A DNA stretch of 64,000 bases from Bacteroidia bacterium (GCA_039931675.1 JBDTRM010000046.1:310-64309), one strand, 5' to 3'. Positions 1,234 to 19,775 are shown, counted from the first letter of the stretch. Program-made: numbers and translations. The notes: generated by a model from the sequence alone, not told the origin.

Positions 1234-1234
1234 T

Positions 1235-3159: not shown

Positions 3160-3269
3160 AAGTTAATCCTATAAATCATGGTTCAGACAATTTTATTCTA
3201 AAAGCTGTGCTAATTTTATGGCTTTGCTAACGGTTTAATTATTTTTTGCAATTCAGTTAAATTTCAATG

Positions 3270-3804: not shown

Positions 3805-4217
3805 AGAAATTTAATGATTGTGATGCCGGTTAATGTTGCAAGAAGTCCAAGCAAAATACTTGAGACAATGTAAATGGATGCATACCAGAATTGTCCATCG
3901 CGAAGCAACCCGACTGTTTCATTAGAGAATGCAGAGAAAGTGGTAAAGCCTCCAAGAACACCGGTGGCAAGAAAAAGCCGCCACTCCTGTGTCATATTAC
4001 CTCTTTCACTAATTGCAAATACAACACCGATCAGGAAACAACCGATGATGTTTACTCCTAAAGTGCCGAAAGGAAAAGTTGATAGAAACTTTGTTTGAAT
4101 GAATTGGGAAAGCAGGTACCTGGAAATTCCCCCGATAAAACTCCCTGTGCCGATTGCTAATATTAGTTTCATTTCTTTTTTTGAAGTTACATGATTTGCT
4201 GAATTAGCCTGCAACAT
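3801..4217 (-). CDS. crcB: fluoride ion channel CrcB/FluC
   Basis: Four-TM small protein with the GGFTTFSAFS motif. The true start may be the internal MKLILAIGTG at about 4172. Confidence 0.9.
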   Translation of the reverse strand: MLQANSANHVTSKKEMKLILAIGTGSFIGGISRYLLSQFIQTKFLSTFPFGTLGVNIIGCFLIGVVFAISERGNMTQEWRLFLATGVLGGFTTFSAFSNETVGLLRDGQFWYASIYIVSSILLGLLATLTGITIIKFL

Positions 4218-4330
4218 AAAAATTAATTTTTAGTTTTTTGATTTCATATCTTCAAAATGAAAAAACACGAGGATGTAACCCAATTTATAATACATTCGCG
4301 CCTCGAAAAAAAAGCTAAAAACAAATCACA

Positions 4331-4747
4331 ATGAGTAACATCACATTTACAATGCTAAAGCCCGATGCTATAGCGAACGGCCATCTGGGTAACATTTTGA
4401 ACGACATTATTAAAGACGGATTTAAAGTCAAAGCCATGAAATATTTATGGTTAACAACCGACCAGGCAGGAAAATTTTATGAGATTCATAAAGAGCGTCC
4501 ATTTTATAAAGACCTGGTAGCATACATGAGTTCAGGACCAATTGTGGCAGCTATTCTTGAAAAAGAAAATGCGGTGGAAGCATTTCGCAAACTGATTGGT
4601 GCAACTGATCCCACTAAAGCTCAGGAAGGAACCATTCGTAAAAAATATGCAAAATCAATAGAAGCCAATGCTATGCATGGCAGCGATAGCGATGCCAATG
4701 CAATTATAGAAGGAGGATTTTTCTTCTCGCAGTTTGAGCGATTTTAA
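4331..4747 (+). CDS. ndk: nucleoside diphosphate kinase
   Basis: TFTMLKPDA...GATDP...NAMHGSDS, canonical Ndk. Confidence 0.95.
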
Positions 4748-4774
4748 AAACAGTACAGTCATTGAAAATAGGAA

Positions 4775-4828
4775 TGTCATCCTGAGCGAAGAGGCCGAGA
4801 GAACTGTCATCCTGAGCGAAGCGAAGGA
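4775..4828. repeat. direct repeat of TGTCATCCTGAGCGAAG (REP-like word)
   Basis: Two copies 30 bp apart (4775-4791, 4805-4821) between the convergent ndk and mntH. Confidence 0.8.
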
Positions 4829-4909
4829 ACTTTCTATGTAGGTAGTAAGTACTTCATTTGAAGAAAGATGTTTCGTTTCACTCAACAGGACAACTTTGTA
4901 AGCCACCTC

Positions 4910-6793
4910 TCATCTTACTATCAACACCGGAATATTTACTGCATGACGCACGGCATCCACTGTAGTGCCAAACACCATATCTTTTAATCCGCGGTGACCA
5001 TGCGCACCCATTACTAAAAGTTGAGCATTAAATTCTTTAACGAATTGCGGAATTACTTTTTTCGGATTTCCATAACCGATTGTTGATTCGCATTGGTAAC
5101 CTTTTGATATAAGGTAGTCGGCATATTTTTTAACGTTGGCTTTATCTGTGGCAGTTTCAAGGTCTTCAATATCCTTTCCCATTACCATTGCACCAACAGT
5201 TTCAACTGCATGTATAATTAAATAAACTGCCTGCTTACCTCCTGACTGCAATGCATGTTCAATTGTCTTTTCATCTGCTGCACTAAAATCAATAGCAATG
5301 GCAATGCGTTTATAAGCAGGTGAAATGGCTAATTCAAATTCTTTAAACCCGCCATGAGGCACAGTACTTTGTTTTTGTTTTGCCTTTGATATAAATGGTT
5401 TAAGCGAAATTGTAAGCAACATTATTCCTGCAAATATTAAAATCGGAATTACAATAAACTCAACAATGTATTTATACTCACCTGCTATTGCGAGCCACTC
5501 AATTGTTTGAGCATACACTAATTTAATATTGAGGCTTACAATGATCAGGGCACTTAGCCATGCCAGGATTTTTAATGCTGCACCTATTTTAAACTCGCCC
5601 ATTTTTTCTTTATCGCTTACAAAATGTATTAATGGTATTACAGCAAAGCCTAATTGCATACTAAGCAATACCTGTGAAAAAATTAGTAGCTTACCGGTAT
5701 AACTTTCGCCAAAATAATTAATGCAGATAAGTGCAGGAACAATGGCAATAATACGGGTAATCAATCTCCGTATCCACGGCTGTATGCGCAGGTTAAGATA
5801 TCCTTCCATCACAATTTGTCCTGCAAGCGTGCCGGTGATGGTAGAACTTTGTCCGGCCGCAATCAATGCAATTGCAAATAATATCGGTGCATATTGGGCA
5901 CCAAGCAATGGTGCTAATAGTTTATGTGCATCCTGAATTTCGGCAACTCCAAAAAGCCCGTTGGAGAAAAATGCTGCTGCTGCCAATATTAATATTGCTG
6001 CATTTACGAACAACGCAAGATTTAGTGCAATGGCAGAGTCAATAACATTATAGCGTATAGCGGCCCAGATAGATTTTGGCGTGCGCTCGAAGATTCGTGT
6101 TTGCACTAAAGATGAATGTAAATAAAGATTATGCGGCATTACTGTGGCTCCTATAATTCCTATAGCAATATAAAGCGCTTCATCATTTAGTTTGGAAGGA
6201 ATAAAACCCAATGCCACATCGCCAATAACCGGCTGAGCATACCACAGTTCAGCAACGAAGGCCAATCCTATAATAGTGATAAGGCCAATGATAAATGCTT
6301 CCATTTTACGAATGCCGAAGTTGAGCATGAATAAAAGCAAAAAGGTATCCAATACAGATATGGTTACACCCCACGTTAGCGGAATGTGGAACAGCAACTG
6401 CAATCCTATTGCCATGCCCAGCACCTCGGCAAGATCGCATGCGGCTATGGCAATTTCGGCAAGTATGTAGAGGAACATATTCGTAAATGGATGATACAAC
6501 TCACGCGAGGCCTGTGCAAGATCGCGGCCACGCACAATGCCTAAGCGCGCGCTTAAACTTTGCAGCAGCAGTGCCATCAGGTTTGACATAAGTAATACCC
6601 AAAGCAAGGTGTAACCGAATTTGCTTCCACCGGCAAGATCGGTGGCCCAGTTACCGGGATCCATATAACCAACGCTTACTAAATATGCCGGCCCGAAAAA
6701 TGCAAATATGCGTTTCCATTTACTGCCCGGTAATTTTGTTTCCACAGAAGCATTTACTTCTGCAAGGGATATTGATTTGCTTTGTGATTTCAT
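4910..6793 (-). CDS. mntH: Nramp-family divalent metal (Mn2+) transporter fused to a C-terminal universal stress protein domain
   Basis: N-terminal GPAYLVSVGYMDPGNWATDL Nramp signature and multi-TM body. The last ~140 aa (IAIAIDFS...LLVMGAHGHRGLKDMVFGTTVDAVRH) form a UspA fold. Confidence 0.9.
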   Translation of the reverse strand: MKSQSKSISLAEVNASVETKLPGSKWKRIFAFFGPAYLVSVGYMDPGNWATDLAGGSKFGYTLLWVLLMSNLMALLLQSLSARLGIVRGRDLAQASRELYHPFTNMFLYILAEIAIAACDLAEVLGMAIGLQLLFHIPLTWGVTISVLDTFLLLFMLNFGIRKMEAFIIGLITIIGLAFVAELWYAQPVIGDVALGFIPSKLNDEALYIAIGIIGATVMPHNLYLHSSLVQTRIFERTPKSIWAAIRYNVIDSAIALNLALFVNAAILILAAAAFFSNGLFGVAEIQDAHKLLAPLLGAQYAPILFAIALIAAGQSSTITGTLAGQIVMEGYLNLRIQPWIRRLITRIIAIVPALICINYFGESYTGKLLIFSQVLLSMQLGFAVIPLIHFVSDKEKMGEFKIGAALKILAWLSALIIVSLNIKLVYAQTIEWLAIAGEYKYIVEFIVIPILIFAGIMLLTISLKPFISKAKQKQSTVPHGGFKEFELAISPAYKRIAIAIDFSAADEKTIEHALQSGGKQAVYLIIHAVETVGAMVMGKDIEDLETATDKANVKKYADYLISKGYQCESTIGYGNPKKVIPQFVKEFNAQLLVMGAHGHRGLKDMVFGTTVDAVRHAVNIPVLIVR

Positions 6794-6794
6794 G

Positions 6795-7457
6795 CTATTG
6801 TATTTTAATCAGCAGGTTTGCAGCTACAGTGCTGCTTACATGCAGGGTTTGATTTTTATTTATGGAGAGGTTTAAAGAATTGTCGTATTCATTCCTGTCA
6901 ATCACTTTCAGTTTACAACCGATGTTAAGCTGATGTTTTTCAAGATATTTAAGAAAAGCGTCTGAGTGATCAACTACGGCAGTTACGGTTCCGCTTTGTC
7001 CCTTCTTTAGTTCCTCTAAAGGTATAAGGGGCAACTTTTGTATTTTACCATTTGCATCAGGTATGGGATCGCCATGCGGATCAAATTTAGGGTAGCCTAA
7101 AAAATGATCTAACCTGTTTATGAGATCATCAGAAACCACGTGCTCCATTTGCTCAGCAATTACGTGTACCTCATTCCATTTAAAACCTAATGTTTTAACT
7201 AAGAAGAGTTCCCACAGCCTGTGCCTCCTGATTACATTAAGCGCTACTTTATTTCCCTTGTCAGTCATTTGCACACCGCGATACTTTTCATGCTTCAGGT
7301 ATTTCTTCAGTGCGAGTTTCCTTATCATGTCATTGGCCGATGAAGCCTTGGTGCTTAGTGCCGCTGCAATATCATTGGTGGTAACGGTATCAGTTGTTTT
7401 TTCTGACAGTTTGTAAATAGCTTTAAGATAATTCTCTATAGTATAGGAATTTTCCAT
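6795..7457 (-). CDS. mntR: DtxR/MntR-family metal-dependent transcriptional repressor with C-terminal FeoA/SH3-like domain
   Basis: N-terminal winged helix (ENYLKAIYKL...), metal-binding/dimerisation region (RRHRLWELFL...EQMEHV); immediately upstream of mntH (1-nt gap). Confidence 0.75.
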   Translation of the reverse strand: MENSYTIENYLKAIYKLSEKTTDTVTTNDIAAALSTKASSANDMIRKLALKKYLKHEKYRGVQMTDKGNKVALNVIRRHRLWELFLVKTLGFKWNEVHVIAEQMEHVVSDDLINRLDHFLGYPKFDPHGDPIPDANGKIQKLPLIPLEELKKGQSGTVTAVVDHSDAFLKYLEKHQLNIGCKLKVIDRNEYDNSLNLSINKNQTLHVSSTVAANLLIKIQ

Positions 7458-7495
7458 GATGGGTATAAAATATTTTCGGCAAATATAATTTTAAA

Positions 7496-7511
7496 TTTAG
7501 ATTAGTCTAAA
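7496..7511. promoter_or_regulatory. candidate DtxR/MntR operator (palindrome TTTAGAttagTCTAAA)
   Basis: Perfect 6-4-6 inverted repeat about 40 bp upstream of the mntR start. The core TTAGTCTAA resembles the centre of the DtxR box (TTAGCCTAA). Confidence 0.4.
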
Positions 7512-7648
7512 ATAAATTTAAGATTTATAATTTGTGTCTAAGCACATTTCAAAAGCGGGTTGTTTATAAATTGAGAAAAGTATTTTAATGATAAAGCGAA
7601 ATTTTATAAATTTAGCAACCGGATTATTAACCACAAACAGAATTTATT

Positions 7649-8605
7649 ATGAAGAAATTACTTAAAGTTTTATTAGGAATTATTATTGTAATTGTTGTAT
7701 TGGCGGGCACAGCCGCTGCTGTTATTGCTATTCGCGGCATTCCACATTATGAACCGCAAAAGGTTGAAGTTAAAGTGGAGATAACACCTCAACGTGTGGA
7801 GCAAGGCTTAAAGTTAGCCACGCATCTTTGCCTTGCCTGTCATGTACCACTGAATGGGGTGCAAATGAGTGGCCGCGAATTAAATGACGTGCCTGAAGAA
7901 TTTGGTACTGCATATTCTTCCAACATCACCAAAGATCCTGATCATGGAATTGGCAAATGGACTGACGGAGAACTCATTTATTTTTTACGGACGGGAGTAA
8001 AGCCAAACGGAGATTTTGCTCCTCCCTGGATGCCAAAATTTGCTCACATGAGTGAAGAAGATTTATTTTCAATCATATCCTACCTGAGGTCAGATCACCC
8101 AACAGTGCAACCTTCAACAGCTGTTTCTGTTAAATGCGAACCGTCTTTCTTAACCAAGTTTCTTTGCCAGTTTGCATTCAAGCCGTTGGCTTATCCTAAA
8201 GAAGAGATTAAAACTCCTGATACTACAGATCTTGCAGTTTACGGCCATTATCTTGTTGCCGGGCGTTACGATTGCTATCCATGCCATAGTGCGAATTTTA
8301 AAACCATCAATATAAATGAACCTGACAAGACGCCCGGATTTCTTGGTGGTGGTAATACGCTGATGGATAACGAGAGAAGAAAAATTCATTCCGCTAATAT
8401 TACTACGGACCAGGAAACCGGAATAGGCAGTTGGACATTCGAACAATTTTCAGATGCTTTGCGTTACGGTAAAAAAGGTGAAACAGGTTTGCGTTATCCA
8501 ATGATGCCTTATACTCGCTTAGACGATACTGAAGTAAAAGCAATATGGGCTTATCTTCAAACAGTATCTAAGATTAAGAATAAAGTTGACAGGACGCTTT
8601 TTTAA
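7649..8605 (+). CDS. membrane-anchored dihaem c-type cytochrome
   Basis: N-terminal TM helix; two CxxCH motifs (CLACH, CYPCH). Confidence 0.75.
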   Translation: MKKLLKVLLGIIIVIVVLAGTAAAVIAIRGIPHYEPQKVEVKVEITPQRVEQGLKLATHLCLACHVPLNGVQMSGRELNDVPEEFGTAYSSNITKDPDHGIGKWTDGELIYFLRTGVKPNGDFAPPWMPKFAHMSEEDLFSIISYLRSDHPTVQPSTAVSVKCEPSFLTKFLCQFAFKPLAYPKEEIKTPDTTDLAVYGHYLVAGRYDCYPCHSANFKTININEPDKTPGFLGGGNTLMDNERRKIHSANITTDQETGIGSWTFEQFSDALRYGKKGETGLRYPMMPYTRLDDTEVKAIWAYLQTVSKIKNKVDRTLF

Positions 8606-8693
8606 TTGAATGTTTAATGTTGAATTTCGAATAATGACAAATGAAATACCATAGACTTCAAAATTGGCTATTCATCATTTGAATTTTTTAATA

Positions 8694-9596
8694 ATGAATA
8701 AAAAAATCTTGATTATTATTTGCGGACCCACTGCTGTTGGTAAAACAGATGTTAGCATTGCTGTTGCAAAACATCTTGGTGCGGAAATAATTTCATTTGA
8801 CTCACGACAATTTTTTGTTGAAACTAATATAGGCACAGCTAAGCCTGATGCAGAGCAGCTTGCCGCAGTGAAACATCATTTCATTAACTCGCATCATGTG
8901 TGGGAACATTTCAGCGCAGGCGAATTTGCTGATGCCTGTTTGGCTTTGCTCAATGCATCTGAAAATAAACAGCAACAATTTGTTATGGTTGGTGGTTCAG
9001 GATTATACATTGATGCATTGGTAAATGGCATGGATGATTTGCCCGGCAAGGATGAACCTATACGCCAACAGTTAGACCAACTGTATGATGAAAAGGGGAT
9101 AGGAGCGCTACAGGAAAAATTAAAAGCGTTTGATGAAAAATATTATAACACAGTTGATCTTAATAATAAGCAACGGCTGATGCGTGCATTAGAAGTGATA
9201 CAATTAAGCGGCAAACCTTATTCATCATTTCTTGGTAACAGCCAACATGCATTTAATTTTATACCGGTTTACATCGCGCTTGATCTCAATCGCGATGAGT
9301 TGTATAAAAGAATTAATAACAGGGTGGACACCATGATGCAAGGCGGGCTTAAAGAAGAATGTATTCGCTTAATGGAATACAAAACATGCAATGCTTTGAA
9401 GACGGTTGGTTACAAGGAAATGTTCGAACACATTGAAGGAAAATATTCTCTTGATGAAGCAGTTACATTAATCAAGCAACATACCCGCAACTATGCAAAG
9501 CGACAGCTAACCTGGTTCAGAAAAAATAAAAACTTCAAGTGGTTTAACCCTGATGATTTGAATGCGATTATTAGTCATGTTGATAGTAACCCATAA
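8694..9596 (+). CDS. miaA: tRNA dimethylallyltransferase
   Basis: P-loop ICGPTAVGKT, ...SRQ..., QLTWFRK; start placed at MNKKILII. Confidence 0.9.
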   Translation: MNKKILIIICGPTAVGKTDVSIAVAKHLGAEIISFDSRQFFVETNIGTAKPDAEQLAAVKHHFINSHHVWEHFSAGEFADACLALLNASENKQQQFVMVGGSGLYIDALVNGMDDLPGKDEPIRQQLDQLYDEKGIGALQEKLKAFDEKYYNTVDLNNKQRLMRALEVIQLSGKPYSSFLGNSQHAFNFIPVYIALDLNRDELYKRINNRVDTMMQGGLKEECIRLMEYKTCNALKTVGYKEMFEHIEGKYSLDEAVTLIKQHTRNYAKRQLTWFRKNKNFKWFNPDDLNAIISHVDSNP

Positions 9597-9776
9597 TGCT
9601 TGTTCTGTTCCGGGATGGTATCCCGTTTTACACGTATAGACCAACAAGGCAAATATTTCCAGATAATAGTTCACACCATAAACATTATGGTTATTGATGC
9701 ATGTATATTTGATAACTTTTCGATTATGTTTGTGATTAAAATAAGATGTTAGCGGATTTACAAAACAACTACGGCA

Positions 9777-10676
9777 ATGAAACAAACAATCATTTTTACA
9801 ATCTTGCTCGCAGGACTATTTCAGAGTGCAGCGGGACAAGACTTCAAACAACAGTTCGATGATTTATGCAAAAAAAAAGACACTGCCGGAGAAGAGAAAT
9901 TACTTGCTCAATGGCAGGACAAAAAACCTAACGATCCTGAACTGTATGTTGCATATTATAACTTTTATGTTCAGAAAAGCATGAAAGAAATGATTGGACT
10001 TGAACAACAACAGAAAGGTGAAAATTCTCTTGAGTTAAAAGACTCAGCCGGAAAAGTTGCCGGCTACATGAATGACATGGTTGTGTATGATGACAAGTAT
10101 TTAAGAAAGGGATTTGAATATATTGATAAGGGCATTGCAATGTTTCCAAACAGGCTTGACATGCGATTCGGTAAAATTTATATTCTTGGGAAAAATGAAA
10201 ATTACAAAGATTTTACGGACGAAATAATTAAGACGATTGAATATTCAAACAAAAATAAAAATGCCTGGCTGTGGACAGACAATAAGCCACAAGATGAACC
10301 GAAACAATTTATGTTGAGTGCAATTCAGGATTATATCCTGCAATTATACGACACCGGAGATGATACGTTACTTGACAACATGAAAGGAATTTCGGAGGCA
10401 GTTCTTAAATATTATCCCGACCATGTTGAAAGTCTTTCAGACTTATCAATTGTTTACATGTTAAACAAAGAGTATGACAAAGCTCTTGAACAATTATTAA
10501 AAGCTGAAAAAATTGCACCAACTGACTGTATTGTTCTTAATAACATTGCAGAAGCCTATAAGAGAAAAGGCGACAATGCAAATGCTATAACTTATTACGA
10601 AAAAATTTTGAAGCATGGTGATAAAGAAGCCAAAGCAGCAGCACAAAAACAGATAGACAAACTGGATAAGAAATGA
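9777..10676 (+). CDS. secreted TPR-repeat protein
   Basis: Signal peptide; C-terminal TPR-like helices (NNIAEAYKRKGDNANAITYYEKIL). Confidence 0.65.
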   Translation: MKQTIIFTILLAGLFQSAAGQDFKQQFDDLCKKKDTAGEEKLLAQWQDKKPNDPELYVAYYNFYVQKSMKEMIGLEQQQKGENSLELKDSAGKVAGYMNDMVVYDDKYLRKGFEYIDKGIAMFPNRLDMRFGKIYILGKNENYKDFTDEIIKTIEYSNKNKNAWLWTDNKPQDEPKQFMLSAIQDYILQLYDTGDDTLLDNMKGISEAVLKYYPDHVESLSDLSIVYMLNKEYDKALEQLLKAEKIAPTDCIVLNNIAEAYKRKGDNANAITYYEKILKHGDKEAKAAAQKQIDKLDKK

Positions 10677-10711
10677 CTATACATGCCACCTCGCTCAAGC
10701 AATCCTTCTGC

Positions 10712-10782
10712 CATTTCACAAAACCCTCAAACCTTTAACTTAAGCCTGTTGCAATGATGAAAGTATTGATTGATTTGTTAGG
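10712..10782 (+). repeat. array-1 element copy R1 (long form)
   Basis: catttcacaaaaccctcaaacctttaac...TTGCAaTGATGAAAGTATTGATtGATTTGTTaGG; near-identical long form at R8. Confidence 0.9.
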
Positions 10783-10791
10783 AACAGTAAC

Positions 10792-10824
10792 AGATTTGAT
10801 AACTTTTAGAAAGTTGTCAAATCT
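10792..10824. repeat. 15-bp-stem palindrome AGATTTGATAACTTT-tag-AAAGTTGTCAAATCT
   Basis: Inverted repeat with one G-T position; a closely related palindrome lies at 37204-37237. Confidence 0.7.
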
Positions 10825-10866
10825 ATCATACAATAAAGACATTGCAGTTTTTGATGCAAGCATATA

Positions 10867-10896
10867 TTGTATATAAGAACCTTTCGATTATGTTTG
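10867..10896 (+). promoter_or_regulatory. candidate Bacteroidota promoter (TTG-N19-TATGTTTG)
   Basis: Matches the -33 TTG / -7 TAnnTTTG architecture, 16 nt before the 10912 start. The 16-mer TTTCGATTATGTTTGT is also present at 9718-9733 upstream of the TPR gene. Confidence 0.45.
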
Positions 10897-10911
10897 TTCG
10901 GGTAATAACAT

Positions 10912-12219
10912 GTGATATACTATTTTAAACAACCAACAGTGCGACTGATAACGTACACATTAATTCTAACCTTTTTAATTACTATGACTTTGTCCGGACA
11001 GACAAAGACAGTGAAGACCGGCGTGTATTTTGATACCGACAAGTTTGACCTTAGGGGTGAAGGCAAACAAACTATTGATAACACATTCGACACTTTACAA
11101 AATGTTGTGCTTACTAAAATTGTTTTGACAGGCAACACTGATAATTCAGCAGACAGTTTGTATAACCTCAAACTTTCTGACAACAGAGTTGAGGCAGTTA
11201 ATACTTACCTGCTGACAAAAGGAATAAATCAATCTATTATTTCAACGGATTATTTCGGAGAAGAAAAACCAAAAGCTACGAATGAAACAGGTGAAGGGAA
11301 ACAAATAAACCGAAGAGTTGACATTTTAATTTTCTATAAGACGGAAGTAATTCCCAAACAAACCATTGCAGTTGACACAATTCCTAAACAGATTTTGAAA
11401 ACCGACACCTGTAAAAGCGACACTACAATTATACTTCCCGAGGGAACGCAGGTAGTTTTTAATCGCTGTGAGTATTTTGAAATAAAAGAGTGCGTTGAGT
11501 TTACCGAAACAAATAATCCGCAAGCGATTTTAGTTAACGGACTTTCATTAATGGACACCAGCGGTTTTCCGATTGCAAGTTGCGGCATGTTAAGGGTTAC
11601 TCTAAAGCCGGGTTGCACAAACAGGGAATGTTTTAAAGTTCCTGTAAAAGTCCGCTTCCCTGTTCCTGAAGATAAAGAATGTGATTATTGCGGGCGGGAT
11701 GCAAACCTGTATGATATTACAAATAATGGTTTGTGGGTTCAAACTCCGCAAAGCAAAAAAACAGAAGTGAAACTGGTGAAAGTACGTGGACAAATGTTTT
11801 ATCAATTTGAATTGTTTTGCCCTAACGGTTGGAATAATTGTGACTGTAAAATCAAATGGAAAAAGGTAAAATTTAAAACTAAACATTCTTCCCGGATTAT
11901 AACTTTAAAAGTAACCAATGACTGCCCTGCCACTGTTTTTGAGTTTAAGCCAAAAGCAAGAAAGAATATTGCAATTGCAAAAATACCCTGTAGGAAAGGA
12001 AATAAAACAGTAATCGCAACAATCGTCAACAGCAAAGGAGATACTTTGATTTTAAAGCAACAACTATTGAATGACCTACCAAAGCGAACTGCATTTTCCA
12101 AGTGTGAAAAAATAAAAGGTGAAACAATCGGCAAATGGCTTGGTGTTTTCCCGATTGCAAAACGGGAACTATATCGCAAGTATATTATCAAAACTAACCT
12201 GCTTACAAAACAAGAATGA
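10912..12219 (+). CDS. OmpA-like domain protein with Cys-rich C-terminal region
   Basis: VYFDTDKFDL...LTGNTDNSADSLYNLKLSDNRVEAV...INRRVDILI is an OmpA C-terminal-like fold. GTG start is uncertain. Confidence 0.7.
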   Translation: MIYYFKQPTVRLITYTLILTFLITMTLSGQTKTVKTGVYFDTDKFDLRGEGKQTIDNTFDTLQNVVLTKIVLTGNTDNSADSLYNLKLSDNRVEAVNTYLLTKGINQSIISTDYFGEEKPKATNETGEGKQINRRVDILIFYKTEVIPKQTIAVDTIPKQILKTDTCKSDTTIILPEGTQVVFNRCEYFEIKECVEFTETNNPQAILVNGLSLMDTSGFPIASCGMLRVTLKPGCTNRECFKVPVKVRFPVPEDKECDYCGRDANLYDITNNGLWVQTPQSKKTEVKLVKVRGQMFYQFELFCPNGWNNCDCKIKWKKVKFKTKHSSRIITLKVTNDCPATVFEFKPKARKNIAIAKIPCRKGNKTVIATIVNSKGDTLILKQQLLNDLPKRTAFSKCEKIKGETIGKWLGVFPIAKRELYRKYIIKTNLLTKQE

Positions 12220-12262
12220 ACCCAGTTGCATTGAGGAAAGTATTGATAGATTTGTTCGTGGG
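12219..12262 (+). repeat. array-1 element copy R2
   Basis: TTGCATTGAgGAAAGTATTGATAGATTTGTTcGtGGG, starting at the stop codon of the preceding gene. Confidence 0.9.
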
Positions 12263-12282
12263 ATTTAATATTATAGAATAAC

Positions 12283-12888
12283 GTGCAACAAAAAATAAAC
12301 ATAAGACTTATTGATAAGATAAAAAAACCTGCGGTGGGAAATAATGTTTCAAGTAAAATTATCAGATTCATTCTTTACCCCATTTATATTATAATTGGAA
12401 TAATTTATCTCTTTTTAGTTATGATTTTTGGTTTGTTTCAAAAGCTCGTAATCACAATTATAGGCAGAAATAAAAAGGAAAGTGATAACAATACAATCTC
12501 TAATGAAATGCAATGGGTAACCTGGACAAAGATTAACGAGATATTGATAGATAGAAAATACATGGGAGAGTTAAGCATGTCAGGCCCGATATGTTTTAGC
12601 ATAAAAACAAAACCAAGAATAATAGATTTAGAAAACATTGCTTTTGGAGATTGGTTCTTTCCTCATAACAATGGAATATTTTTACAAAAATGGAATTCTA
12701 CAGATAAAGCAGATTCAGATTTACTTTTTTTTAATGCTGAAAGTTTTAAGATTAGAACAGTCGAAAAAAACATATCATCTGTAAGTTGGAACATAGTTGA
12801 ATTGGAAGATAAATCATTACAATTAAATTGTGAGACAGACGAAAACATCTTGATTTTTAAAATTGAAATGACAACCCCATTGCATTGA
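12283..12888 (+). CDS. hypothetical membrane-anchored protein
   Basis: 201-codon ORF with one N-terminal TM segment; start (GTG) uncertain. Confidence 0.5.
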   Translation: MQQKINIRLIDKIKKPAVGNNVSSKIIRFILYPIYIIIGIIYLFLVMIFGLFQKLVITIIGRNKKESDNNTISNEMQWVTWTKINEILIDRKYMGELSMSGPICFSIKTKPRIIDLENIAFGDWFFPHNNGIFLQKWNSTDKADSDLLFFNAESFKIRTVEKNISSVSWNIVELEDKSLQLNCETDENILIFKIEMTTPLH

Positions 12889-12915
12889 TGAAAGTATTGA
12901 TAGATTTGTTGGGGG
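12870..12915 (+). repeat. array-1 element copy R3
   Basis: TTGCATTGATGAAAGTATTGATAGATTTGTTGGGGGG, overlapping the stop of the preceding ORF. Confidence 0.9.
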
Positions 12916-12953
12916 GAAATAAAGATATTAAGCACTATTTTAAAAAAACGAAT

Positions 12954-13406
12954 ATGACAGACCAAATAATAATTACAAAACCAAATCTTGGAAAACGCAT
13001 TACCGCAGGGTTCATTGACTATGGAATAATTTTTTTGCTATTTTTTGTACTGATTTATTTTTTTGGAGTACATACTGAAGATAAAGGTTATACTTTAACC
13101 GGACTACCTGCAATTGGACTGATGCTATTTTGGTTTCTATATACAATTGGTGCAGAACAATTATTTGGAGCCACACTTGGTAATTACCTTGAAAATCTTG
13201 AAGTAATTTCTATACTTGACAATCAACCTTCGCTTACATTTGGACAATCATTTAAGCGTCATTTGCTTGATTTAATTGATATTTGGCTATTTGGTGTTTT
13301 GGCAATTTTGTTCATTAAAAACACAAAATATAACCAACGACTTGGCGACATTTGGGCAAGGACAATTGTAGTTGACACTATGGACCAGTCACAAGGGTTT
13401 CAATAA
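12954..13406 (+). CDS. RDD-family membrane protein
   Basis: KRITAGFIDYGIIFLLFF... plus C-terminal RLGDIWARTIVV is typical of the RDD domain. Start placed at MTDQ, downstream of the repeat-encoded ATG. Confidence 0.65.
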   Translation: MTDQIIITKPNLGKRITAGFIDYGIIFLLFFVLIYFFGVHTEDKGYTLTGLPAIGLMLFWFLYTIGAEQLFGATLGNYLENLEVISILDNQPSLTFGQSFKRHLLDLIDIWLFGVLAILFIKNTKYNQRLGDIWARTIVVDTMDQSQGFQ

Positions 13407-13430
13407 AATAATCATTTTTAATCAACCTTG

Positions 13431-13504
13431 CTCTTTCCAAAACTCTCAACCCTATAACCTAACCCTATTGCATTGATGATAGTATTGATAGATTTGTTGG
13501 GAGG
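13431..13504 (+). repeat. array-1 element copy R4 (long form)
   Basis: ctctttccaaaactctcaaccctataacc...TTGCATTGATGAtAGTATTGATAGATTTGTTGGGAGG. Confidence 0.9.
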
Positions 13505-13562
13505 AATAAATTAAGTTTATCTTATTTAATAAATTATAAAAGGTAGCACAAATTAAAATACA

Positions 13563-14378
13563 ATGGTGATAATTACTAGACATTCCTTGTGCAGTTTTTC
13601 GGTTATGCTTCTATTGCTACTAAATAATTGTTTCGCACAATCAGGTATTTATAAAATCAGTGGAACGGTTTATAATAAGGCTGAGGGGCCAAATGCAGTA
13701 TTGGAGAATGCGAGTGTTGAATTATTAGTTTCAGATAGTGTCCATTATGAAACAAAAACGGATTCTATTGGACATTATACATTGGAGCATCTAAAACTAC
13801 TGCCGAATAAAATTTATTCTTTGGCATGCACCTACATAGGCTATCTCACTTATTACGAAAAGATTAATGTCGAAGAAAATAATCTTTTTGATGAATTTAA
13901 AGTTGACTTTAACACTCACCTAATAATTTGCAAATGGCATATGGGTTTGTCAGAACATCTTCCTAAAAGAATGTTTTCAAAATCTTCTTACAAACCAACA
14001 AATGCCTTGAAGAAAGGCTTAAAGAAAGAAGCAGGTGAACTGGACGAAAATCCAACTTTGACGATTCTAATAAGTGGACATATAGATTATGATGAAACAA
14101 TTCAAGGAGATACAATGTTGGCTTACAACCGAGCATTGGCAGTTAAAAAAATTTTAATTGGTTATGGCATTGAAGAAAAAAGATTAGCCGTCAGGAGTTT
14201 GGGAATTACCAAACCTTATACCATGTCGGAAGATACGCTTGAATTAAAAAAAGGAATGGTTTTAAATTATGAACTTATACAATCTCTTCATTCCCAAAAA
14301 AATGTTGATTTAGGTCATCAGCTAAACCGAAGAATTTCTTTTGAAATTGTAAGAACTGACTACGTGCCTTATGAATAA
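13563..14378 (+). CDS. CarboxypepD_reg-like plus OmpA-like domain protein
   Basis: Signal peptide; YKISGTVYNK...ASVELL beta-sandwich start; C-terminal LISGHIDYDE...AYNRALAVKKIL...NRRISFEIV OmpA-like. Confidence 0.65.
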   Translation: MVIITRHSLCSFSVMLLLLLNNCFAQSGIYKISGTVYNKAEGPNAVLENASVELLVSDSVHYETKTDSIGHYTLEHLKLLPNKIYSLACTYIGYLTYYEKINVEENNLFDEFKVDFNTHLIICKWHMGLSEHLPKRMFSKSSYKPTNALKKGLKKEAGELDENPTLTILISGHIDYDETIQGDTMLAYNRALAVKKILIGYGIEEKRLAVRSLGITKPYTMSEDTLELKKGMVLNYELIQSLHSQKNVDLGHQLNRRISFEIVRTDYVPYE

Positions 14379-14385
14379 AAAGCCG

Positions 14386-14436
14386 CTTTAACCCAACCCT
14401 GCTGCATTAATGAAAGTATTGATAGATTTGTTGGGA
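14386..14436 (+). repeat. array-1 element copy R5
   Basis: cTGCATTaATGAAAGTATTGATAGATTTGTTGGGAG. Confidence 0.9.
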
Positions 14437-14480
14437 GAAATAAATATATGAACCTAAAATAGAATAGTATTAAACAATAC

Positions 14481-15200
14481 ATGAGGATACAAATTTTTAT
14501 TCTTACTCATTTATTTTCTGTGACATCGCTTTTCGGTCAGGCACAACAAACGAAAACATTTGAGACGGAAGTTTTATCTCATGACAAAACAAAAGAAATC
14601 TTCAATGATAAGGTAAAGACAAAATTCAATATCAGCTACCCTATCTTCAAAGTTTACAGCTACAAAGACAAGTCAGGTGAATTTTATTTAGTGCTTACAG
14701 AAAGTAATGATAGCATCACAATTGACAAAGACACGCTTCATAGCAATATCAAAGCATTTAATCTTATTAAGTCAAATACAGGTCTTGTAAAAAAGTGGGA
14801 GATAAATGACTTTAAGATAAAACAAATTAATAATGAAGGTCTTGAAACATCAATTTCGTTCTTGACAAAATATTGCGAGTTTCAGGATATTGATAACGAC
14901 AATATAATTGACCCCATTTTAGTTTACGGCTCAGCGGGTATAAATGGATATGGTGACGGAAGAATTAAAATATTGATTTTCTATAAAGAACAAAAGATTA
15001 CCATTCGTCATCAAAATGGTATTCTTGACTTTTGGAGAAATACTAAAGTTGATAAAGCATTTTACTCTTTACCTTTAGTATTGCAAAATCATGTAAAAGA
15101 CTTAATGCAAAAAATGGTTGGCAGCGACCTTACTAATTTTCCTGATGGTTGGCAGGATGCAATGAGTAAACACAAACTATATTTTGACGAGAACAAATAA
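14481..15200 (+). CDS. hypothetical secreted protein
   Basis: 239-codon ORF with signal peptide (LFSVTSLFGQA). Confidence 0.55.
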   Translation: MRIQIFILTHLFSVTSLFGQAQQTKTFETEVLSHDKTKEIFNDKVKTKFNISYPIFKVYSYKDKSGEFYLVLTESNDSITIDKDTLHSNIKAFNLIKSNTGLVKKWEINDFKIKQINNEGLETSISFLTKYCEFQDIDNDNIIDPILVYGSAGINGYGDGRIKILIFYKEQKITIRHQNGILDFWRNTKVDKAFYSLPLVLQNHVKDLMQKMVGSDLTNFPDGWQDAMSKHKLYFDENK

Positions 15201-15222
15201 AAACCCCGATAACGGATCGGTG

Positions 15223-15594
15223 ATGGTGACTGACAAATACAACTTCTTATCTTACGATGAGTTATTTGATGCAATTGAAAATGATTTATCAGACAATAAA
15301 TTCAAAGCATTAGCTCAACTTTTAATGAGTGCAGTTACCGACTGGCATGCATTGAATTTACGAGAACCCAAAAACCTAATCATAGAATTAAAAAAAGAAA
15401 TCAATAACAAATTAACCTTTGACAGTATTGAAGGTTATTTAAAAAAACTTAAACCCTCTCATCACGCATGGAAAATGGAAGCAATTAGTGCATTACTTGA
15501 AATGTTTGACTTTGAAAGGAAAAACTTATTTGACATGAATATTGAACTTCCTGAAATTATCGAGCGCGTAACGCAACATTATAGGCAGAAATAA
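15223..15594 (+). CDS. hypothetical cytoplasmic protein
   Basis: ORF 15184..15594 trimmed to the internal Met MVTDKY to remove overlap with the upstream gene. Confidence 0.45.
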   Translation: MVTDKYNFLSYDELFDAIENDLSDNKFKALAQLLMSAVTDWHALNLREPKNLIIELKKEINNKLTFDSIEGYLKKLKPSHHAWKMEAISALLEMFDFERKNLFDMNIELPEIIERVTQHYRQK

Positions 15595-15610
15595 AATAGA
15601 ATTTATCTTC

Positions 15611-15686
15611 TCTTTTCCCAAATACCATCAAACCCTTAACGCAAGCTTGTTGCATTAATGAAAGTATTGATAGATTTGTTGGGGAG
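15611..15686 (+). repeat. array-1 element copy R6 (long form)
   Basis: tcttttcccaaataccatcaaacccttaac...TTGCATTaATGAAAGTATTGATAGATTTGTTGGGGAG. Confidence 0.9.
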
Positions 15687-15747
15687 AAACCTACTAACCC
15701 AAATTCAGAAAACTTTTTCGCTACCTTTGACTTATAAAAATTATATC

Positions 15748-15951
15748 ATGTTGATAGAAAGAACATCAAGCGAAGTGATCATCCGGCTTCCATCTTATGT
15801 GGACACAGAAGGCTTACAGCAGCTTGTAGATTATTTGAGCTACAAGGAAGCAACTGCAAAGTCAAAGGCAAAGCAATCTGATGTTGACAAACTTGCTAAG
15901 GAAGTAAAGAAAGGTTGGTGGACTAAAAACCGTAGCCGGTTTATAAAATGA
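15748..15951 (+). CDS. putative antitoxin partner of the PIN-domain toxin
   Basis: 67-aa protein (MLIERTSSEVIIRLP...) 6 nt upstream of a PIN gene. Start placed downstream of the repeat-encoded ATG. Confidence 0.5.
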   Translation: MLIERTSSEVIIRLPSYVDTEGLQQLVDYLSYKEATAKSKAKQSDVDKLAKEVKKGWWTKNRSRFIK

Positions 15952-15957
15952 TGGCTG

Positions 15958-16431
15958 ATGGCAACCAAAAGGAAAAAACATAAAGTCATTAAAATAATAA
16001 TTGACACCAATATTATTTTCAGTGCACTGCTTAACACCAACGGAACCATAGGCGATCTGCTTTTCAACTCATATAACCATTTTGAATTTTACAGTTGCAG
16101 TTACATGCGATACGAAATAGAAAAGCATCGCGAAAAACTAAAACGCATTTCTAAATTATCAGACACTGAACTTGAAGAAGCAAGATTTAAAATTTTTGAC
16201 CAAATCAATTTTATTAACGAAGAACTTATTCCCGCAAAAACCTGGCTTGCAGCAGAAGAAATAACAAAGGAAATTGATATTGATGATTCAGATTTTGTTG
16301 CATTGACAAAATATCTTAAAGGTTATTTATGGACAGGTGATAAAGAACTTTACAACGGACTAACAAAGAAAAACTTTAAAAGCGTTTTCAATACATCAGA
16401 ACTTATTGCTTTAAGGAAGGCAAAAAAATAA
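15958..16431 (+). CDS. PIN-domain (VapC-like) toxin
   Basis: IIIDTNIIFSALL N-terminal acidic motif, later D/E residues (DDSDFVAL...TGDKEL). Confidence 0.7.
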   Translation: MATKRKKHKVIKIIIDTNIIFSALLNTNGTIGDLLFNSYNHFEFYSCSYMRYEIEKHREKLKRISKLSDTELEEARFKIFDQINFINEELIPAKTWLAAEEITKEIDIDDSDFVALTKYLKGYLWTGDKELYNGLTKKNFKSVFNTSELIALRKAKK

Positions 16432-16437
16432 ATTGAA

Positions 16438-16483
16438 CGTAAGCCTGTTGCATTGATGAAAGTATTGATAGATTTATTGGGGG
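16438..16483 (+). repeat. array-1 element copy R7
   Basis: TTGCATTGATGAAAGTATTGATAGATTTaTTGGGGGG. Confidence 0.9.
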
Positions 16484-16516
16484 GATTAATCATGCAAATC
16501 TTATTATCAAAATAAC

Positions 16517-16942
16517 ATGAAAACATCGTATCTGATATTCTTAAATTTTCTAATATTTTTTAAAATAACGAATGGTCAAAATATATCCAATCAAAAAAAG
16601 AACATAAAATCACATTATAAAAAAGAGAATATTATTGATGTAAGAAAAGCATTACAAGGAAAATGGGTTTTATCAGATAACAATGTTAATGAGTTGAATT
16701 TTTCAGGTGATACATTAATTGAAAAAACAGAATTGGGAATAGCGTATAATTTATATGCTTTAAGAAAAAAAATAGTCTTAGATGGAGATACTATCAAATT
16801 GGCAAACTACGAAACAGCTTTATATTATGGTCCTCAAAATAAAGAATTACAATTGGTTTATATAATAGAAAATGTTACTGACAGTGTTTTGTCATTAACC
16901 TCTCCATATAGTAACCAGAATGCACTTTATGTTAGGAAGTAA
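16517..16942 (+). CDS. hypothetical small secreted protein
   Basis: 141-codon ORF with signal peptide. Confidence 0.5.
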   Translation: MKTSYLIFLNFLIFFKITNGQNISNQKKNIKSHYKKENIIDVRKALQGKWVLSDNNVNELNFSGDTLIEKTELGIAYNLYALRKKIVLDGDTIKLANYETALYYGPQNKELQLVYIIENVTDSVLSLTSPYSNQNALYVRK

Positions 16943-16967
16943 AATGAATAGCCCTTTGCTCAACGCG

Positions 16968-17035
16968 CATTTCACAAAACCGTCAAACCTTTAACTAACC
17001 TGTTGCATTGATGAAAGTATTGATAAATTTGATGG
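16968..17035 (+). repeat. array-1 element copy R8 (long form, terminal, no gene after it)
   Basis: catttcacaaaaccgtcaaacctttaac...TTGCATTGATGAAAGTATTGATAaATTTGaTGG. Confidence 0.9.
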
Positions 17036-17051
17036 AAATACTGCTCGCGCC

Positions 17052-17088
17052 AAACCTTATAGGTTTCTAAAAACCTATAAGGTTTTTG
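17052..17088. terminator. bidirectional stem-loop terminator
   Basis: Perfect 15-bp stem AAACCTTATAGGTTT/AAACCTATAAGGTTT, 4-nt loop, T-run; lies between the array 1 end and the convergent gene. Confidence 0.7.
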
Positions 17089-17129
17089 CGGACGAAAACA
17101 GATTTGGAATCTTTGTAAAAGTTTAAAAA

Positions 17130-19775
17130 CTAATATTGAAACTTCTCTTTCAACACAACTCCATCACTCTCTACAATTAAAAAGTACATTCCCTGCGAAA
17201 AGTTGTAAAGATTAAGATGATTAGTTGTGTTAAGTTGTATCTGTTCATCAAAAACCAGCTTGCCTAATGTGTTGAAAATTTTTACGTGTGCTGATGTGTT
17301 TTCACAACATGGTGTAATTGAAAAGTCAATGCCTCCGTTGTTTGCCACTATTACTAATTGTTGTTTAATATCTTTCTTAAAGATAACGGTTTTCCATTCT
17401 GTATAAGTGCTGCTGCCGTTTATATCAGTTTGTTTTAACCGGTAATAAGAAGTTCCTTGATATGGTTCGTAGTCTCTCTCATTATATGATGCACCTGCAT
17501 TTGCATTACCTTTAGCAGCTATCACGCTTACAACATTTTTATCCTTTGTATCTTTTGATTTTTCTATGGTAAAGAAATGATTGAATGGCTCATTTAATGT
17601 TACCCATTTTATATCAACATAATTGTTTACAGCCTTTGCATCAAAACTTATCAAATTAACGGGCAACGGATTCAATAAATTAATTGATGCCAATGTGTAA
17701 GGACAATATTGTGTAGAGATTAAACTTGAAGTTATAGTTCCCGCAGCGGTTGTGCCTGTAAGCAATCCCGTGTTGTTACCATGATCGCGCCAGATGTTTC
17801 CGCCTGCATCATAACGCGCCACGCGCAAATCATTCATTGAAGTAACACCGCAACTGAAATTATCCCACGAAAGTGTAACCTGGCGGTTAGTAATTCCGGT
17901 AAGCCGGGTAAGATCCCAATACTCGCAATAACTTATGTGATCGAGTGTAGGCTCCAGGTTATTACCAAAAAGTGATTGCGGGTTAACAGGGAAATATTCA
18001 GCGCTAAATGATTCTGTTACAGGTGATGATAAACTTATATCATCAACAGCAAACGAAGGATCAGTGCCGGCATTATCATTATTATTTTCCCATTTGAAAG
18101 CAATTTTTATTCCTGGATTATTGTTCGCACTCACCGGAAGAACTATTGAATAATTAGTCCATTGACCTTGTCCGCTTACGCAAATTGGGCTTTTTAAAGA
18201 TGTATTTAAAACGCTCCATGCGGAACCATCATAATACCAAAGTGAAGCATTATCTAACAATGCTTGTCCATTACCTATATAATTAAATGATAAAGTTATG
18301 CTCGATTTCCCTGTACAATTTATCAATGGTGATTCGGCCCTTCTATTAGTCATGCTAATGCTACTGGCAAGATAAGCAGCACCCCCGGCAGGATTAAAAA
18401 CGCTTGTAACATGCAAAGTTTTGTTTCCATTGTTGGCAACACCGCAACCGGGAGGGGCAATACCACCCTCATCATCCGTAATTTGGAAAAAGTTAGGAAA
18501 ACTTCCTTCAGCACCTAAAATATTTGCGAGTGACCATCCGGAAAGAGCGCTGAAATTTTCAGTCCAGAATGGCGGAGGCAAACCCGCAGCTCCCACGCTC
18601 ATTCCTAATGGCTGCACATTATTTCCTTTACCTATCGGATAAGTAAAACCATTCGTTCCGGTTTTAATGCAAGGTCCACTCACAAAACTTGTATTATTAT
18701 AACCTGATGCTGTTGCAAGGTCTCCAAACGTAATTGGGTATGTGGCAGAAGTTATAAATCGCCCTACTATAAAATTCGCATTGCCATCAACTGTAAATGT
18801 TTTATTTACCAAAACATCATTTGCAGATTTATTAATCTCCAAGTTATAAACTGAAAGGATGCCGGGAGCAATAACAATGGTTTGTGCTATTGCACCTGCA
18901 AATAAAATTTTAGGAGTGCCTGTATAACTCAGTGTTCCGTTTACCGTAAGGTTTGATTCAAATTGAATCCCTGTGCCGCTGTTGCTTAGCGTATTGCCTG
19001 TCCTTATTAACATGTTCCCGATAACACGGGTAGGAGTGCCGTTTGTTTGAGCATTTGAAAAATTAACAGTGCCTATTCCGCTTCCGCCAATATCAAAATT
19101 GCCTTTAATGGTTGGAAATCCTGTTGAGCCAGTGAATATGCTCCCACCTGATGTAATCCAGTTGCCCGCTGTGGCATTTTCAATGGTGAGGTTTCCATAA
19201 AAAGCGCCACCACCTGCTGTTGTTGTAATTACAGGACTTCCGCCTGCTGTCTTTCTCAATATCCAATTTGAGTTAGCAGGGATTGTTGAAACACCACCGT
19301 TATATGCAGTTTGCCAGGTGTTGCTTGCCGATCCCGTGGTTTTTATCAGTGTCGCTCCTGATGACATGCTCCATTTGGCTCCTGCTGAAAAAGTGAGAGT
19401 GCCTCCAACTGTTGTAAGATTATCGGTAATAGTACCATTGTTAATAAGATCAATGCCAACTCCATTATTAATTGTAAGTGTAATTACTCCGCTTATTGTA
19501 AGTGATCCTCCAAGGTTTACCGTCACCTCATCAATCGTAACTGTTGCATTTATTGTAACTGTGTTGGGACTTTGAATAGTAATTGCAAGATCAGCACTTG
19601 TTGGTGTAGTTGCAGCAGGTACCCATCCTCCCACACCCGTAGGTGAACTCTCCCAGGTACTGATTGCATTCCAGTTACCCGTTGCCACTGAACGATAATA
19701 ATTCTGCGCGATGCAATCGGTTGCAGCAGCGAAAATTATCAGCATCAGAACAAAATATTTGTAAAACTTTTTCAA
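17130..19775 (-). CDS. large secreted adhesin-like protein with T9SS C-terminal sorting domain
   Basis: Signal peptide, T/G/N-rich beta-helix-like repeats, C-terminus GMYFLIVESDGVVLKEKFQY. Confidence 0.75.
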   Translation of the reverse strand: MKKFYKYFVLMLIIFAAATDCIAQNYYRSVATGNWNAISTWESSPTGVGGWVPAATTPTSADLAITIQSPNTVTINATVTIDEVTVNLGGSLTISGVITLTINNGVGIDLINNGTITDNLTTVGGTLTFSAGAKWSMSSGATLIKTTGSASNTWQTAYNGGVSTIPANSNWILRKTAGGSPVITTTAGGGAFYGNLTIENATAGNWITSGGSIFTGSTGFPTIKGNFDIGGSGIGTVNFSNAQTNGTPTRVIGNMLIRTGNTLSNSGTGIQFESNLTVNGTLSYTGTPKILFAGAIAQTIVIAPGILSVYNLEINKSANDVLVNKTFTVDGNANFIVGRFITSATYPITFGDLATASGYNNTSFVSGPCIKTGTNGFTYPIGKGNNVQPLGMSVGAAGLPPPFWTENFSALSGWSLANILGAEGSFPNFFQITDDEGGIAPPGCGVANNGNKTLHVTSVFNPAGGAAYLASSISMTNRRAESPLINCTGKSSITLSFNYIGNGQALLDNASLWYYDGSAWSVLNTSLKSPICVSGQGQWTNYSIVLPVSANNNPGIKIAFKWENNNDNAGTDPSFAVDDISLSSPVTESFSAEYFPVNPQSLFGNNLEPTLDHISYCEYWDLTRLTGITNRQVTLSWDNFSCGVTSMNDLRVARYDAGGNIWRDHGNNTGLLTGTTAAGTITSSLISTQYCPYTLASINLLNPLPVNLISFDAKAVNNYVDIKWVTLNEPFNHFFTIEKSKDTKDKNVVSVIAAKGNANAGASYNERDYEPYQGTSYYRLKQTDINGSSTYTEWKTVIFKKDIKQQLVIVANNGGIDFSITPCCENTSAHVKIFNTLGKLVFDEQIQLNTTNHLNLYNFSQGMYFLIVESDGVVLKEKFQY

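Follow-up and report, generated by a model that had tools for sequence, protein, structure and literature searches.

The stretch of DNA analyzed here (64,000 nucleotides (nt) of a Bacteroidia bacterium, GCA_039931675.1 JBDTRM010000046.1:310-64309; hereafter the window) carries, between 10.71 and 17.04 kilobases (kb), eight copies of a promoter-like element of ~75 nt, all on the + strand, with seven gene units between them. Each copy has a variable 5' part (CACAAAACCnTCAAACCTTTAAC), a near-invariant core (TTGCATTGATGAAAGTATTGATAGATTTGTTGGGG) and ~12 weakly conserved nt 3' of the core; a stretch of 35 nt is conserved at ~93%, and the mean pairwise identity of the copies over 48 nt is 81%. The cores start at 10749, 12226, 12880, 13468, 14402, 15650, 16448 and 17003, and the distances from start to start are 1477, 654, 588, 934, 1248, 798 and 555 nt. 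A search with a 35-mer at up to 3 mismatches finds six + strand copies, where none is expected (100 shuffles); a degenerate 27-mer derived from the alignment recovers all eight against a shuffle expectation of 0, and a repeat finder reports eight in-register copies of 50–72 nt each. When a sequence-only covariance model was built from the eight copies and scanned over the window, as a preliminary description of this DNA had proposed, the copies scored 59–75 bits and the sole other match 15 bits (E 0.003; 34478-34498(-), within a coding region). That match contains a 17-nt stretch (TGAAAGTATTGATAGA) equal to the repeat core, inside the 3' end of an open reading frame (ORF) of a second array, and could be a relic or chance. 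The eight + strand copies of the preliminary description are thus borne out by both the 27-mer and the model, and its count of four with a 5' extension agrees with the copies in which the extension is clear; six of its eight core starts were exact, and two (12879 and 16447) were each off by one.

The extension is clear in c1, c4, c6 and c8, degenerate in c5 and c7, and present as a trace in c2. Copy c1 (10712-10790; 71.4 bits), which begins 36 nt past the stop codon of a TPR gene, has the full extension together with the most diverged core (-7 box TTGATTTG). Copy c2 (12197-12266; 59.4 bits) has the preceding stop codon at its edge, c3 (12847-12920; 65 bits) has the consensus core, and c4 (13433-13508; 74.8 bits) again has the full extension. 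The -33 position is CTG in c5 (14368-14442; 67.6 bits); c6 (15617-15689; 71.7 bits) is fully extended, c7 (16421-16488; 67 bits) has TAGATTTA as its -7 box, and c8 (16970-17042; 63.9 bits), also fully extended, is followed by no gene. On the 5' side c1 and c8 are each other's closest match, with homology of ~95 nt counted from GCTCAA.

Gene units, junctions and ends of the array

The seven intervals carry nine genes, all on the + strand. Unit 1 (10912-12219; start codon approximate) encodes a secreted OmpA-C-like protein of 435 residues, unit 2 (12283-12888) a membrane-anchored protein of 201 residues without a known family, unit 3 (12954-13406) an RDD-family membrane protein, and unit 4 (13563-14378) a protein with CarboxypepD_reg and OmpA-C domains and weak PorE-like similarity. 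Unit 5 holds two genes, for a secreted protein of the M949_RS01915 family (14481-15200) and for a cytosolic protein of 123 residues without a known family (15223-15594). In unit 6 (15748-16431) a putative antitoxin of 67 residues, so called by position only, precedes a PIN_2 toxin (15958-16431). Unit 7 (16517-16942; guanine-plus-cytosine (GC) fraction 0.25) encodes a secreted, nearly ORFan protein of 141 residues, for which a search of 1.84 billion representative proteins yields five weak relatives.

Of the nine cargo proteins, six are secreted or membrane-bound. Pfam and NCBIfam identify OmpA (twice), RDD, PIN_2 and the M949_RS01915 family in the cargo, in agreement with the two OmpA-like proteins, the RDD protein and the PIN toxin listed before; the antitoxin listed with them rests on its position. 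The description of the genes as mutually unrelated also stands: no paralogue of a cargo protein was found within the window, and the two OmpA-C domains share only 23% identity. No immunity-protein family was found in the cargo with Pfam, NCBIfam or PADLOC. The GC fraction of the cargo is 0.25–0.36 (0.40 in the antitoxin-like gene), compared with 0.37–0.43 in flanking housekeeping genes, and GC at third codon positions shifts in the same direction. For the M949_RS01915 protein, whose NCBIfam name is surface polysaccharide biosynthesis protein, the AlphaFold2 model is beta-rich and confident (pLDDT 85); comparison with the PDB gave no significant fold match and no sequence match.

At the junctions, stop codons lie at or near copies of the element, as had been noted earlier: TGA at 12217-12219 touches the start of c2, TGA at 12886-12888 (the stop of unit 2) falls inside the c3 core, and the stops ahead of c5 and c7 fall in the eroded 5' part of the element. 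The palindrome and separate promoter formerly noted after the first copy, and the strong terminator after the last that gives the array defined ends, were recovered as well. Directly 3' of c1 lies a 15-bp hairpin (10792-10824(+); -15.8 kcal/mol, z -4.3) that has no U run and whose right arm, read directly, is an inverted partial copy of GATAGATTTG; it is followed by an independent promoter match for unit 1 (10867-10896(+); TTG-N19-TATGTTTG), which is grouped in a third promoter-module family together with modules at 9706(+) and 37140(-). Past c8 a bidirectional intrinsic terminator (17052-17090, both strands; -23.7 and -25.5 kcal/mol, z about -5) closes the array; its hairpin after c8 (17052-17085; -23.7 kcal/mol, z -5.3) is followed by a U run, and the terminator is shared with a convergent gene with a type IX secretion system (T9SS) tail that ends at 17130. 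Since c1 meets a hairpin and c8 a terminator, six copies directly precede genes and the two edge copies are capped.

The promoter match and readings of the core

The primary-sigma promoter of Bacteroidota has TAnnTTTG at -7 and TTG near -33 (PMC7366714, PMC2483708). The conserved 3' half of the element reads TTG-N18-TAGATTTG, that is, a -33 TTG, an 18-nt spacer and TAGATTTG at -7. Five of the eight copies have the full consensus TTG-N17-20-TAnnTTTG and the other three fall one base short, so that the near-consensus promoter claimed for the repeat holds at the sequence level. This motif occurs seven times in 128 kb (both strands of the window), five times within copies, and its chance in the shuffled 79-nt consensus is 0.0009 (0.09%). 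The -7 motif is ~3.5-fold enriched in the 150-nt stretches that precede the window's genes, and the organism thus uses this type of promoter. No further true copies of the element are present in the 64 kb, which argues within that span against a generic promoter.

The position of the match relative to the genes comports with a promoter. The distance from the end of the core to the next start codon is 23–64 nt, consistent with the 20–70 nt given earlier, and that from the -7 box is 28–69 nt for six of the seven following starts. If transcription is assumed to start ~7 nt past the -7 box, the predicted 5' leaders of ~20–60 nt lie within the range of Bacteroides thetaiotaomicron, where leaders have a median of 32 nt and a mean of 52 nt (PMC7366714, PMC2483708). 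Given the strong consensus match, the sensible spacing and the lack of a competing structural role, the module is probably a promoter.

The same core could be read as the opening of a leader ORF, ATG AAA GTA TTG ATA GAT TTG TTG GGG (MKVLIDLLG), that would place the downstream genes under translational control. Its ATG is kept in seven copies, its frame continues into the downstream gene in c3 and c6, and by our count ~6 of 13 substitutions are synonymous. However, the context 5' of the ATG is unlike the A-rich leaders found at real starts in the window, the ORFs differ in length (12 to 40 codons) and have unrelated tails, and the ATG is gone from c2; for these reasons a leader ORF is ranked low, as a very improbable reading. 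If the core is a promoter, moreover, the ATG lies upstream of the transcription start.

Read directly, the core also has, between its -33 and -7 boxes, direct repeats of ATTGAT at a distance of 12 nt. These would suit a regulator, and thus an explanation without mobility, in which one promoter-operator was duplicated locally in a static, co-regulated cluster of envelope genes and its copies were kept alike by selection and gene conversion. The high proportion of secreted and membrane proteins in the cargo agrees with such a cluster. On the other hand, the conservation of the copies extends well beyond what an operator needs, c8 drives nothing, and the units are uneven and low in GC and include an ORFan and a toxin-antitoxin pair. 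Evidence from the array's surroundings and from other promoter modules, given below, bears on this explanation as well.

Possible exchange between copies, folding and genomic setting

The interior copies are 81–90% alike, and c1, c2 and c8 are 73–85% alike to the others; this is the pattern expected of an array homogenized from within. In our reading of the alignment three informative sites, AAG/AAC in the left flank, TTGATG/TTAATG in the core and GGGG/GGGA on the right, are pairwise incompatible by the four-gamete test, and site variants are common to the neighboring copies c3/c4, c4/c5, c5/c6 and c6/c7. The incompatible sites and the variants shared between neighbors suggest that copies have recombined or undergone gene conversion within the module; recurrent mutation is the alternative explanation of these few sites.

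The attC site of integrons is an imperfect inverted repeat that forms, as a single strand, a hairpin in which the R'' box pairs with R' and L'' with L'; the R' box at the 3' end is GTTRRRY and the box at the 5' end is RYYYAAC. Beside the array of a complete integron lies a tyrosine recombinase of the IntI type together with an attI site. The array described here could accordingly be a cluster of attC sites lacking an integron integrase (CALIN) with short, atypical or decayed attC sites, its integrase being elsewhere or lost and the promoter match being secondary or coincidental. Much of the layout is shared with such clusters: tightly packed, co-oriented short units of unrelated or unknown function (among them a toxin-antitoxin unit and an ORFan), a low GC content, a chromosomal and sedentary location, junction sites that begin at or inside the preceding stop codon, and a last site with no gene after it. 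Six of the eight copies end in GTTGGGG, GTTGGGA or GTTAGGA, an R'-like edge (GTTGGGR) that agrees with GTTRRRY at six of seven positions, and CTTTAAC, ACCCAAC or CCTAAC lies upstream in five copies, at a spacing and with a pairing that are not attC-like. By our reading the right half of the core recurs, inverted and imperfect, in the 5' extension, and 13 of 18 positions pair. Integrons have been reported in Bacteroidota (PMC8618304), and the M949 family recurs in an array of Lacibacter luteus, described below, that has a tyrosine recombinase and modules with inverted arms.

Folding does not comport with attC sites. In DNA folds of both strands of the eight copies the minimum free energies range from -0.9 to -10 kcal/mol, and most z values lie between +0.5 and +1.3; none of the eight top strands folds better than dinucleotide shuffles, and among bottom strands only that of c6 does so (z -2.35). 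One module copy from Lacibacter luteus, used as a positive control, folds at -38.9 kcal/mol (z -3.5). An RNA fold of the aligned copies reaches -0.2 kcal/mol with no covariation, no Rfam family matches the element, and the fold tests gave no DNA or RNA structure that fits a terminator, a riboswitch or an attC site. Furthermore, in half of the copies there is no left arm, c2 and c3 being without it altogether, and conservation peaks in the middle of the element, where a sigma-factor promoter is matched, and not in paired arms; the array also has one site more than it has units. Thus the earlier idea of cassettes fits the layout of the array, but the integron-like mechanism that it implies needs qualifying, as the element itself lacks the hairpin of an attC site.

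Nor was a recombinase found: Pfam scans of essentially all ORFs of at least 140 residues detected no recombinase or transposase domain in the 64-kb window, and tblastn with XerD gave no match there, in accordance with the preliminary description, which had reported none nearby. No IntI was found, and no dif/Xer-type site in the window rises above chance. Weighing the layout against the folds and the missing integrase, we consider a CALIN a distinctly unlikely explanation.

The element was searched for in one genome per species for 185,579 species (GTDB), in JGI metagenomes, in IMG/VR, and in plasmids and phages, with no true match in any of these collections. An exact 21-mer of the core has no match in the GTDB genomes, the degenerate 27-mer has none in IMG/VR, and plasmids and phages gave none in a blastn search with the entire array. 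Two matches of the degenerate 27-mer were rejected as chance, one in GTDB that lies inside a coding region and one in the JGI metagenomes that lies in a eukaryotic kinase gene. By these searches the element is private to this lineage. They also bear on the notion of a selfish miniature element (of the MITE (miniature inverted-repeat transposable element), repetitive extragenic palindromic (REP) or Correia type) that entered existing intergenic gaps and carries an incidental outward promoter. Miniature elements that bear promoters exist (e.g., Correia and enterobacterial repetitive intergenic consensus (ERIC) elements, cited in PMC3575422), and the 5' edge of the element is variable; however, it has neither terminal inverted repeats nor target-site duplications, all eight copies share one orientation within 6.3 kb of the 64-kb window with none dispersed elsewhere in it, and no searched public collection holds a copy. 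An insertion of this kind is therefore highly improbable.

The host is an uncultured member of the Bacteroidota whose MiaA is at most 67% identical to any recorded protein. Its MiaA relatives (62–67% identity) keep an NDK-Nramp-repressor-cytochrome c-MiaA block, and the genes that follow it differ: right after miaA two of these loci carry DUF4340, ABC_transp_aux and ABC2 membrane genes, whereas at 9596-17130 of the window the TPR gene comes first, then the array and then the T9SS-tailed gene. The TPR gene is a conserved core gene, 57–78% identical across Bacteroidota, and its closest homologues (72–78% identity) have different neighbors. Neither the array nor the module occurs in these MiaA and TPR relatives, and the fetched comparison loci contain no homologue of any cargo protein other than the M949 protein. 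Since the relatives share the upstream block and differ after it, and the neighbors of the TPR gene differ also, the array lies at a synteny break. A locus absent from relatives and situated at such a break speaks against a static cluster of envelope genes.

Exact-protein look-ups matched nothing but short Logan contigs of a single run (SRR26386622), which break within the repeats; two of them, independent short-read contigs of the same organism, end exactly inside c3 and c5. Since repeats interrupt de Bruijn assembly, metagenome bins probably under-represent such arrays.

Related arrays, known systems and the proposed mechanism

Homologues of the M949_RS01915 protein (41–59% identity) are found in many Bacteroidota, most of them in ordinary contexts. 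Four, however, lie in arrays that resemble the one in the window in their co-oriented, assorted cargo, their M949_RS01915-family member and their own repeated junction modules. In CP158860.1 (1-17650 of the fetched locus) at least 18 genes are accompanied by modules made of two terminator hairpins and further repeats. The array of Marinoscillum pacificum (1100-10700) has a cargo that includes Barstar, an AraC regulator, an SDR protein and an oxidoreductase, with modules of ~115 nt that contain a GC hairpin and end in TTG-N20-TAGATTAG, 23–47 nt ahead of the next start; such a near-consensus promoter at the module's end, shortly before a start codon, is a feature of the window's module also. That of Maribacter sp. 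MMG018 (1-16900) carries a beta-lactamase fold, DUF1203, MORN_2, UPF0167 and an ABC ATPase, with modules of ~250 nt. Terminator hairpins and promoter-like ends mark the modules of these three arrays. In Lacibacter luteus (NZ_SDHW01000002.1; 1-13100) a co-oriented Phage_integrase (tyrosine recombinase) is followed by MerB, Vsr, a helix-turn-helix protein, two C5 methylases, genes without known function and M949; its modules of ~215 nt have long, imperfectly inverted arms (..CAACATGCAGTTTTGCGGCAGCGGGGGC / GCCCCGCCGACCGCAAAGCTGTGAACGTTG..) and end in ..CAAC / GTTG... Cassette-type arrays thus occur in several Bacteroidota families, with M949 as recurrent cargo.

The modules themselves differ from that of the window. 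Those of the four arrays are 110–250 nt long and have strong hairpins (long inverted arms in Lacibacter luteus), whereas the window's module is short and hairpin-free, and the tyrosine recombinase that adjoins the Lacibacter luteus array has no counterpart in the 64 kb. The similarity between the window's module and that of Marinoscillum pacificum is not significant in a shuffle test, and a scan with the terminator-like module of CP158860.1 found generic terminators only. The Lacibacter luteus array reads as an integron-like system or as one like the recombinase-associated acquired interbacterial defense (rAID) systems.

rAID-1 systems of Bacteroidales have a co-oriented XerD-like recombinase at the 5' end, at least two co-directional low-GC genes, repetitive integron-like intergenic motifs and a cargo of orphan immunity genes (Ross et al., 10.1101/471110; PMC12247911). 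The array in the window shares with them a Bacteroidota host, short co-directional low-GC genes (nine, with GC 0.25–0.40) and repeats at its junctions (eight). It differs in that its 5' neighbors are the TPR gene and miaA and not a XerD-like recombinase, and in the lack of immunity families. Putative mobile promoters are defined as sequences of ~50 nt with at least ~80% identity that precede non-homologous genes of the same genome (PMC3575422), and the module is like them in its mean identity over 48 nt, its unrelated downstream genes and the absence of mobile-element hallmarks. Such promoters are mostly pairs scattered over the genome (Matus-Garcia, Nijveen and van Passel 2012; PMC3575422), whereas here eight copies form a contiguous, same-strand, capped array in which the similarity covers the core promoter itself. 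In sum, the array lacks the recombinase of rAID-1 and integrons, the immunity cargo of rAID-1 and the hairpin of attC, and is therefore best described as a variant of the cassette-array kind that belongs to no named family.

The mechanism we favor is as follows. The region from 10.7 to 17.05 kb consists of seven co-oriented, compositionally foreign units with one copy of the module at each junction. The module would start transcription ~7 nt downstream of its -7 box, so that six copies would give the units behind them their own, essentially identical promoter, and the end copies c1 and c8 would run into strong hairpins and drive no gene. The array would have been built and reshuffled unit by unit via recombination at the copies. 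Assembly by units is suggested by identical modules before unrelated genes, by stop codons that touch or reach into the modules, by the low and uneven GC content and by the mosaic of variants. As an attC-type hairpin is missing from the module and a recombinase from the window, exchange could proceed by RecA-type recombination or gene conversion between the homologous copies of 35–70 nt or, alternatively, by an unlinked, unknown recombinase.

The array's architecture, composition and mosaicism, the synteny break and the parallel arrays suggest that it was put together, and still exchanges its units, one by one at the modules, and we put this not far short of an even chance. The combined statement, per-cassette promoter modules in an accessory array built by recombination, has a probability of roughly 0.4. 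Several observations weigh against it. The promoter is a consensus match only; the -7 box of c1 is weakened, and copies such as c1 and c8 that drive no gene are odd for a pure promoter role. The edges of homology are fuzzy at both ends, with no sharp crossover cut, as is equally expected of duplicated promoters under selection. No relative carries the locus, and gain or loss of a unit was never observed; the reading covers 64 kb of the genome, and a recombinase or further copies may lie elsewhere. Finally, the shared cargo family is weak evidence, as most of the inspected M949 homologues are not in arrays.

The fuzzy boundaries also count in favor of the static envelope-gene cluster, as do the frequency of putative mobile promoters in prokaryotes (PMC3575422) and the presence in the window of two other promoter-module families, one of them upstream of the TPR gene, from which promoter reuse appears to be a general habit of this genome. 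Set against the points raised earlier, these leave a static cluster a somewhat unlikely explanation and, with the CALIN, one of the two main rivals. A further reading can also be formulated, in which the module is a linear double-stranded junction site that doubles as a consensus promoter. Genes would be captured together with a Bacteroidota-type promoter of their own or be placed behind one, and exchange would use short-homology recombination or a recombinase that has nothing to do with the folded-attC pathway; such an array, with one promoter per cassette, would be a counterpart of the integron and differ from both integrons and rAID. We hold this reading to be speculative and improbable.

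Promoters from other phyla work poorly in Bacteroidota, and newly acquired genes thus face a barrier to expression. An identical consensus promoter before each accessory gene would lift this barrier unit by unit, whereas an integron depends on one promoter, placed where its array begins. With a layout like that of an integron array and junctions without folded sites, the locus may represent a different way of capturing and expressing accessory genes; if units are exchanged at the modules, it would be a second gene-capture architecture, one without hairpin sites or a neighboring integrase, and would link cassette arrays and mobile promoters, which have so far been treated apart. The recurrence of M949 cargo in the arrays of several Bacteroidota families offers a handle for a systematic survey.

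The two further families of promoter modules in the window fit the phenomenon of putative mobile promoters (PMC3575422). The second and larger one, on the minus strand at 22923-53286, comprises ~11–15 conserved upstream modules (ATTTATTCCCTACTTTTCGCAAACCAAATATTTTTAAAATGAA..) that run into the start codons of small, low-GC genes, mostly without known function, and in which a -7-like box is followed by a leader of ~20 nt and then the start codon; this is the other array of the preliminary description. Modules of the third (..ATATAAGAACCTTTCGATTATGTTTGTT..TAATAACATGTGA) lie at 9706-9749(+), ahead of the conserved TPR gene, at 10834-10913(+), ahead of the first OmpA-like gene, and at 37140-37210(-), ahead of a MORN_2 gene; the latter two agree at ~85% over 60 nt.

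The cumulative GC skew reaches its maximum near 23 kb, where the orientation of genes switches from + (1–23 kb) to - (23–60 kb). From this peak and switch, the window's two arrays may converge on a replication terminus; no dif-like site rises above chance. Among housekeeping genes beside ffh, the ORF at 57732-58388(-) carries HNH_3 and NUMOD4 domains, which are typical of homing endonucleases.

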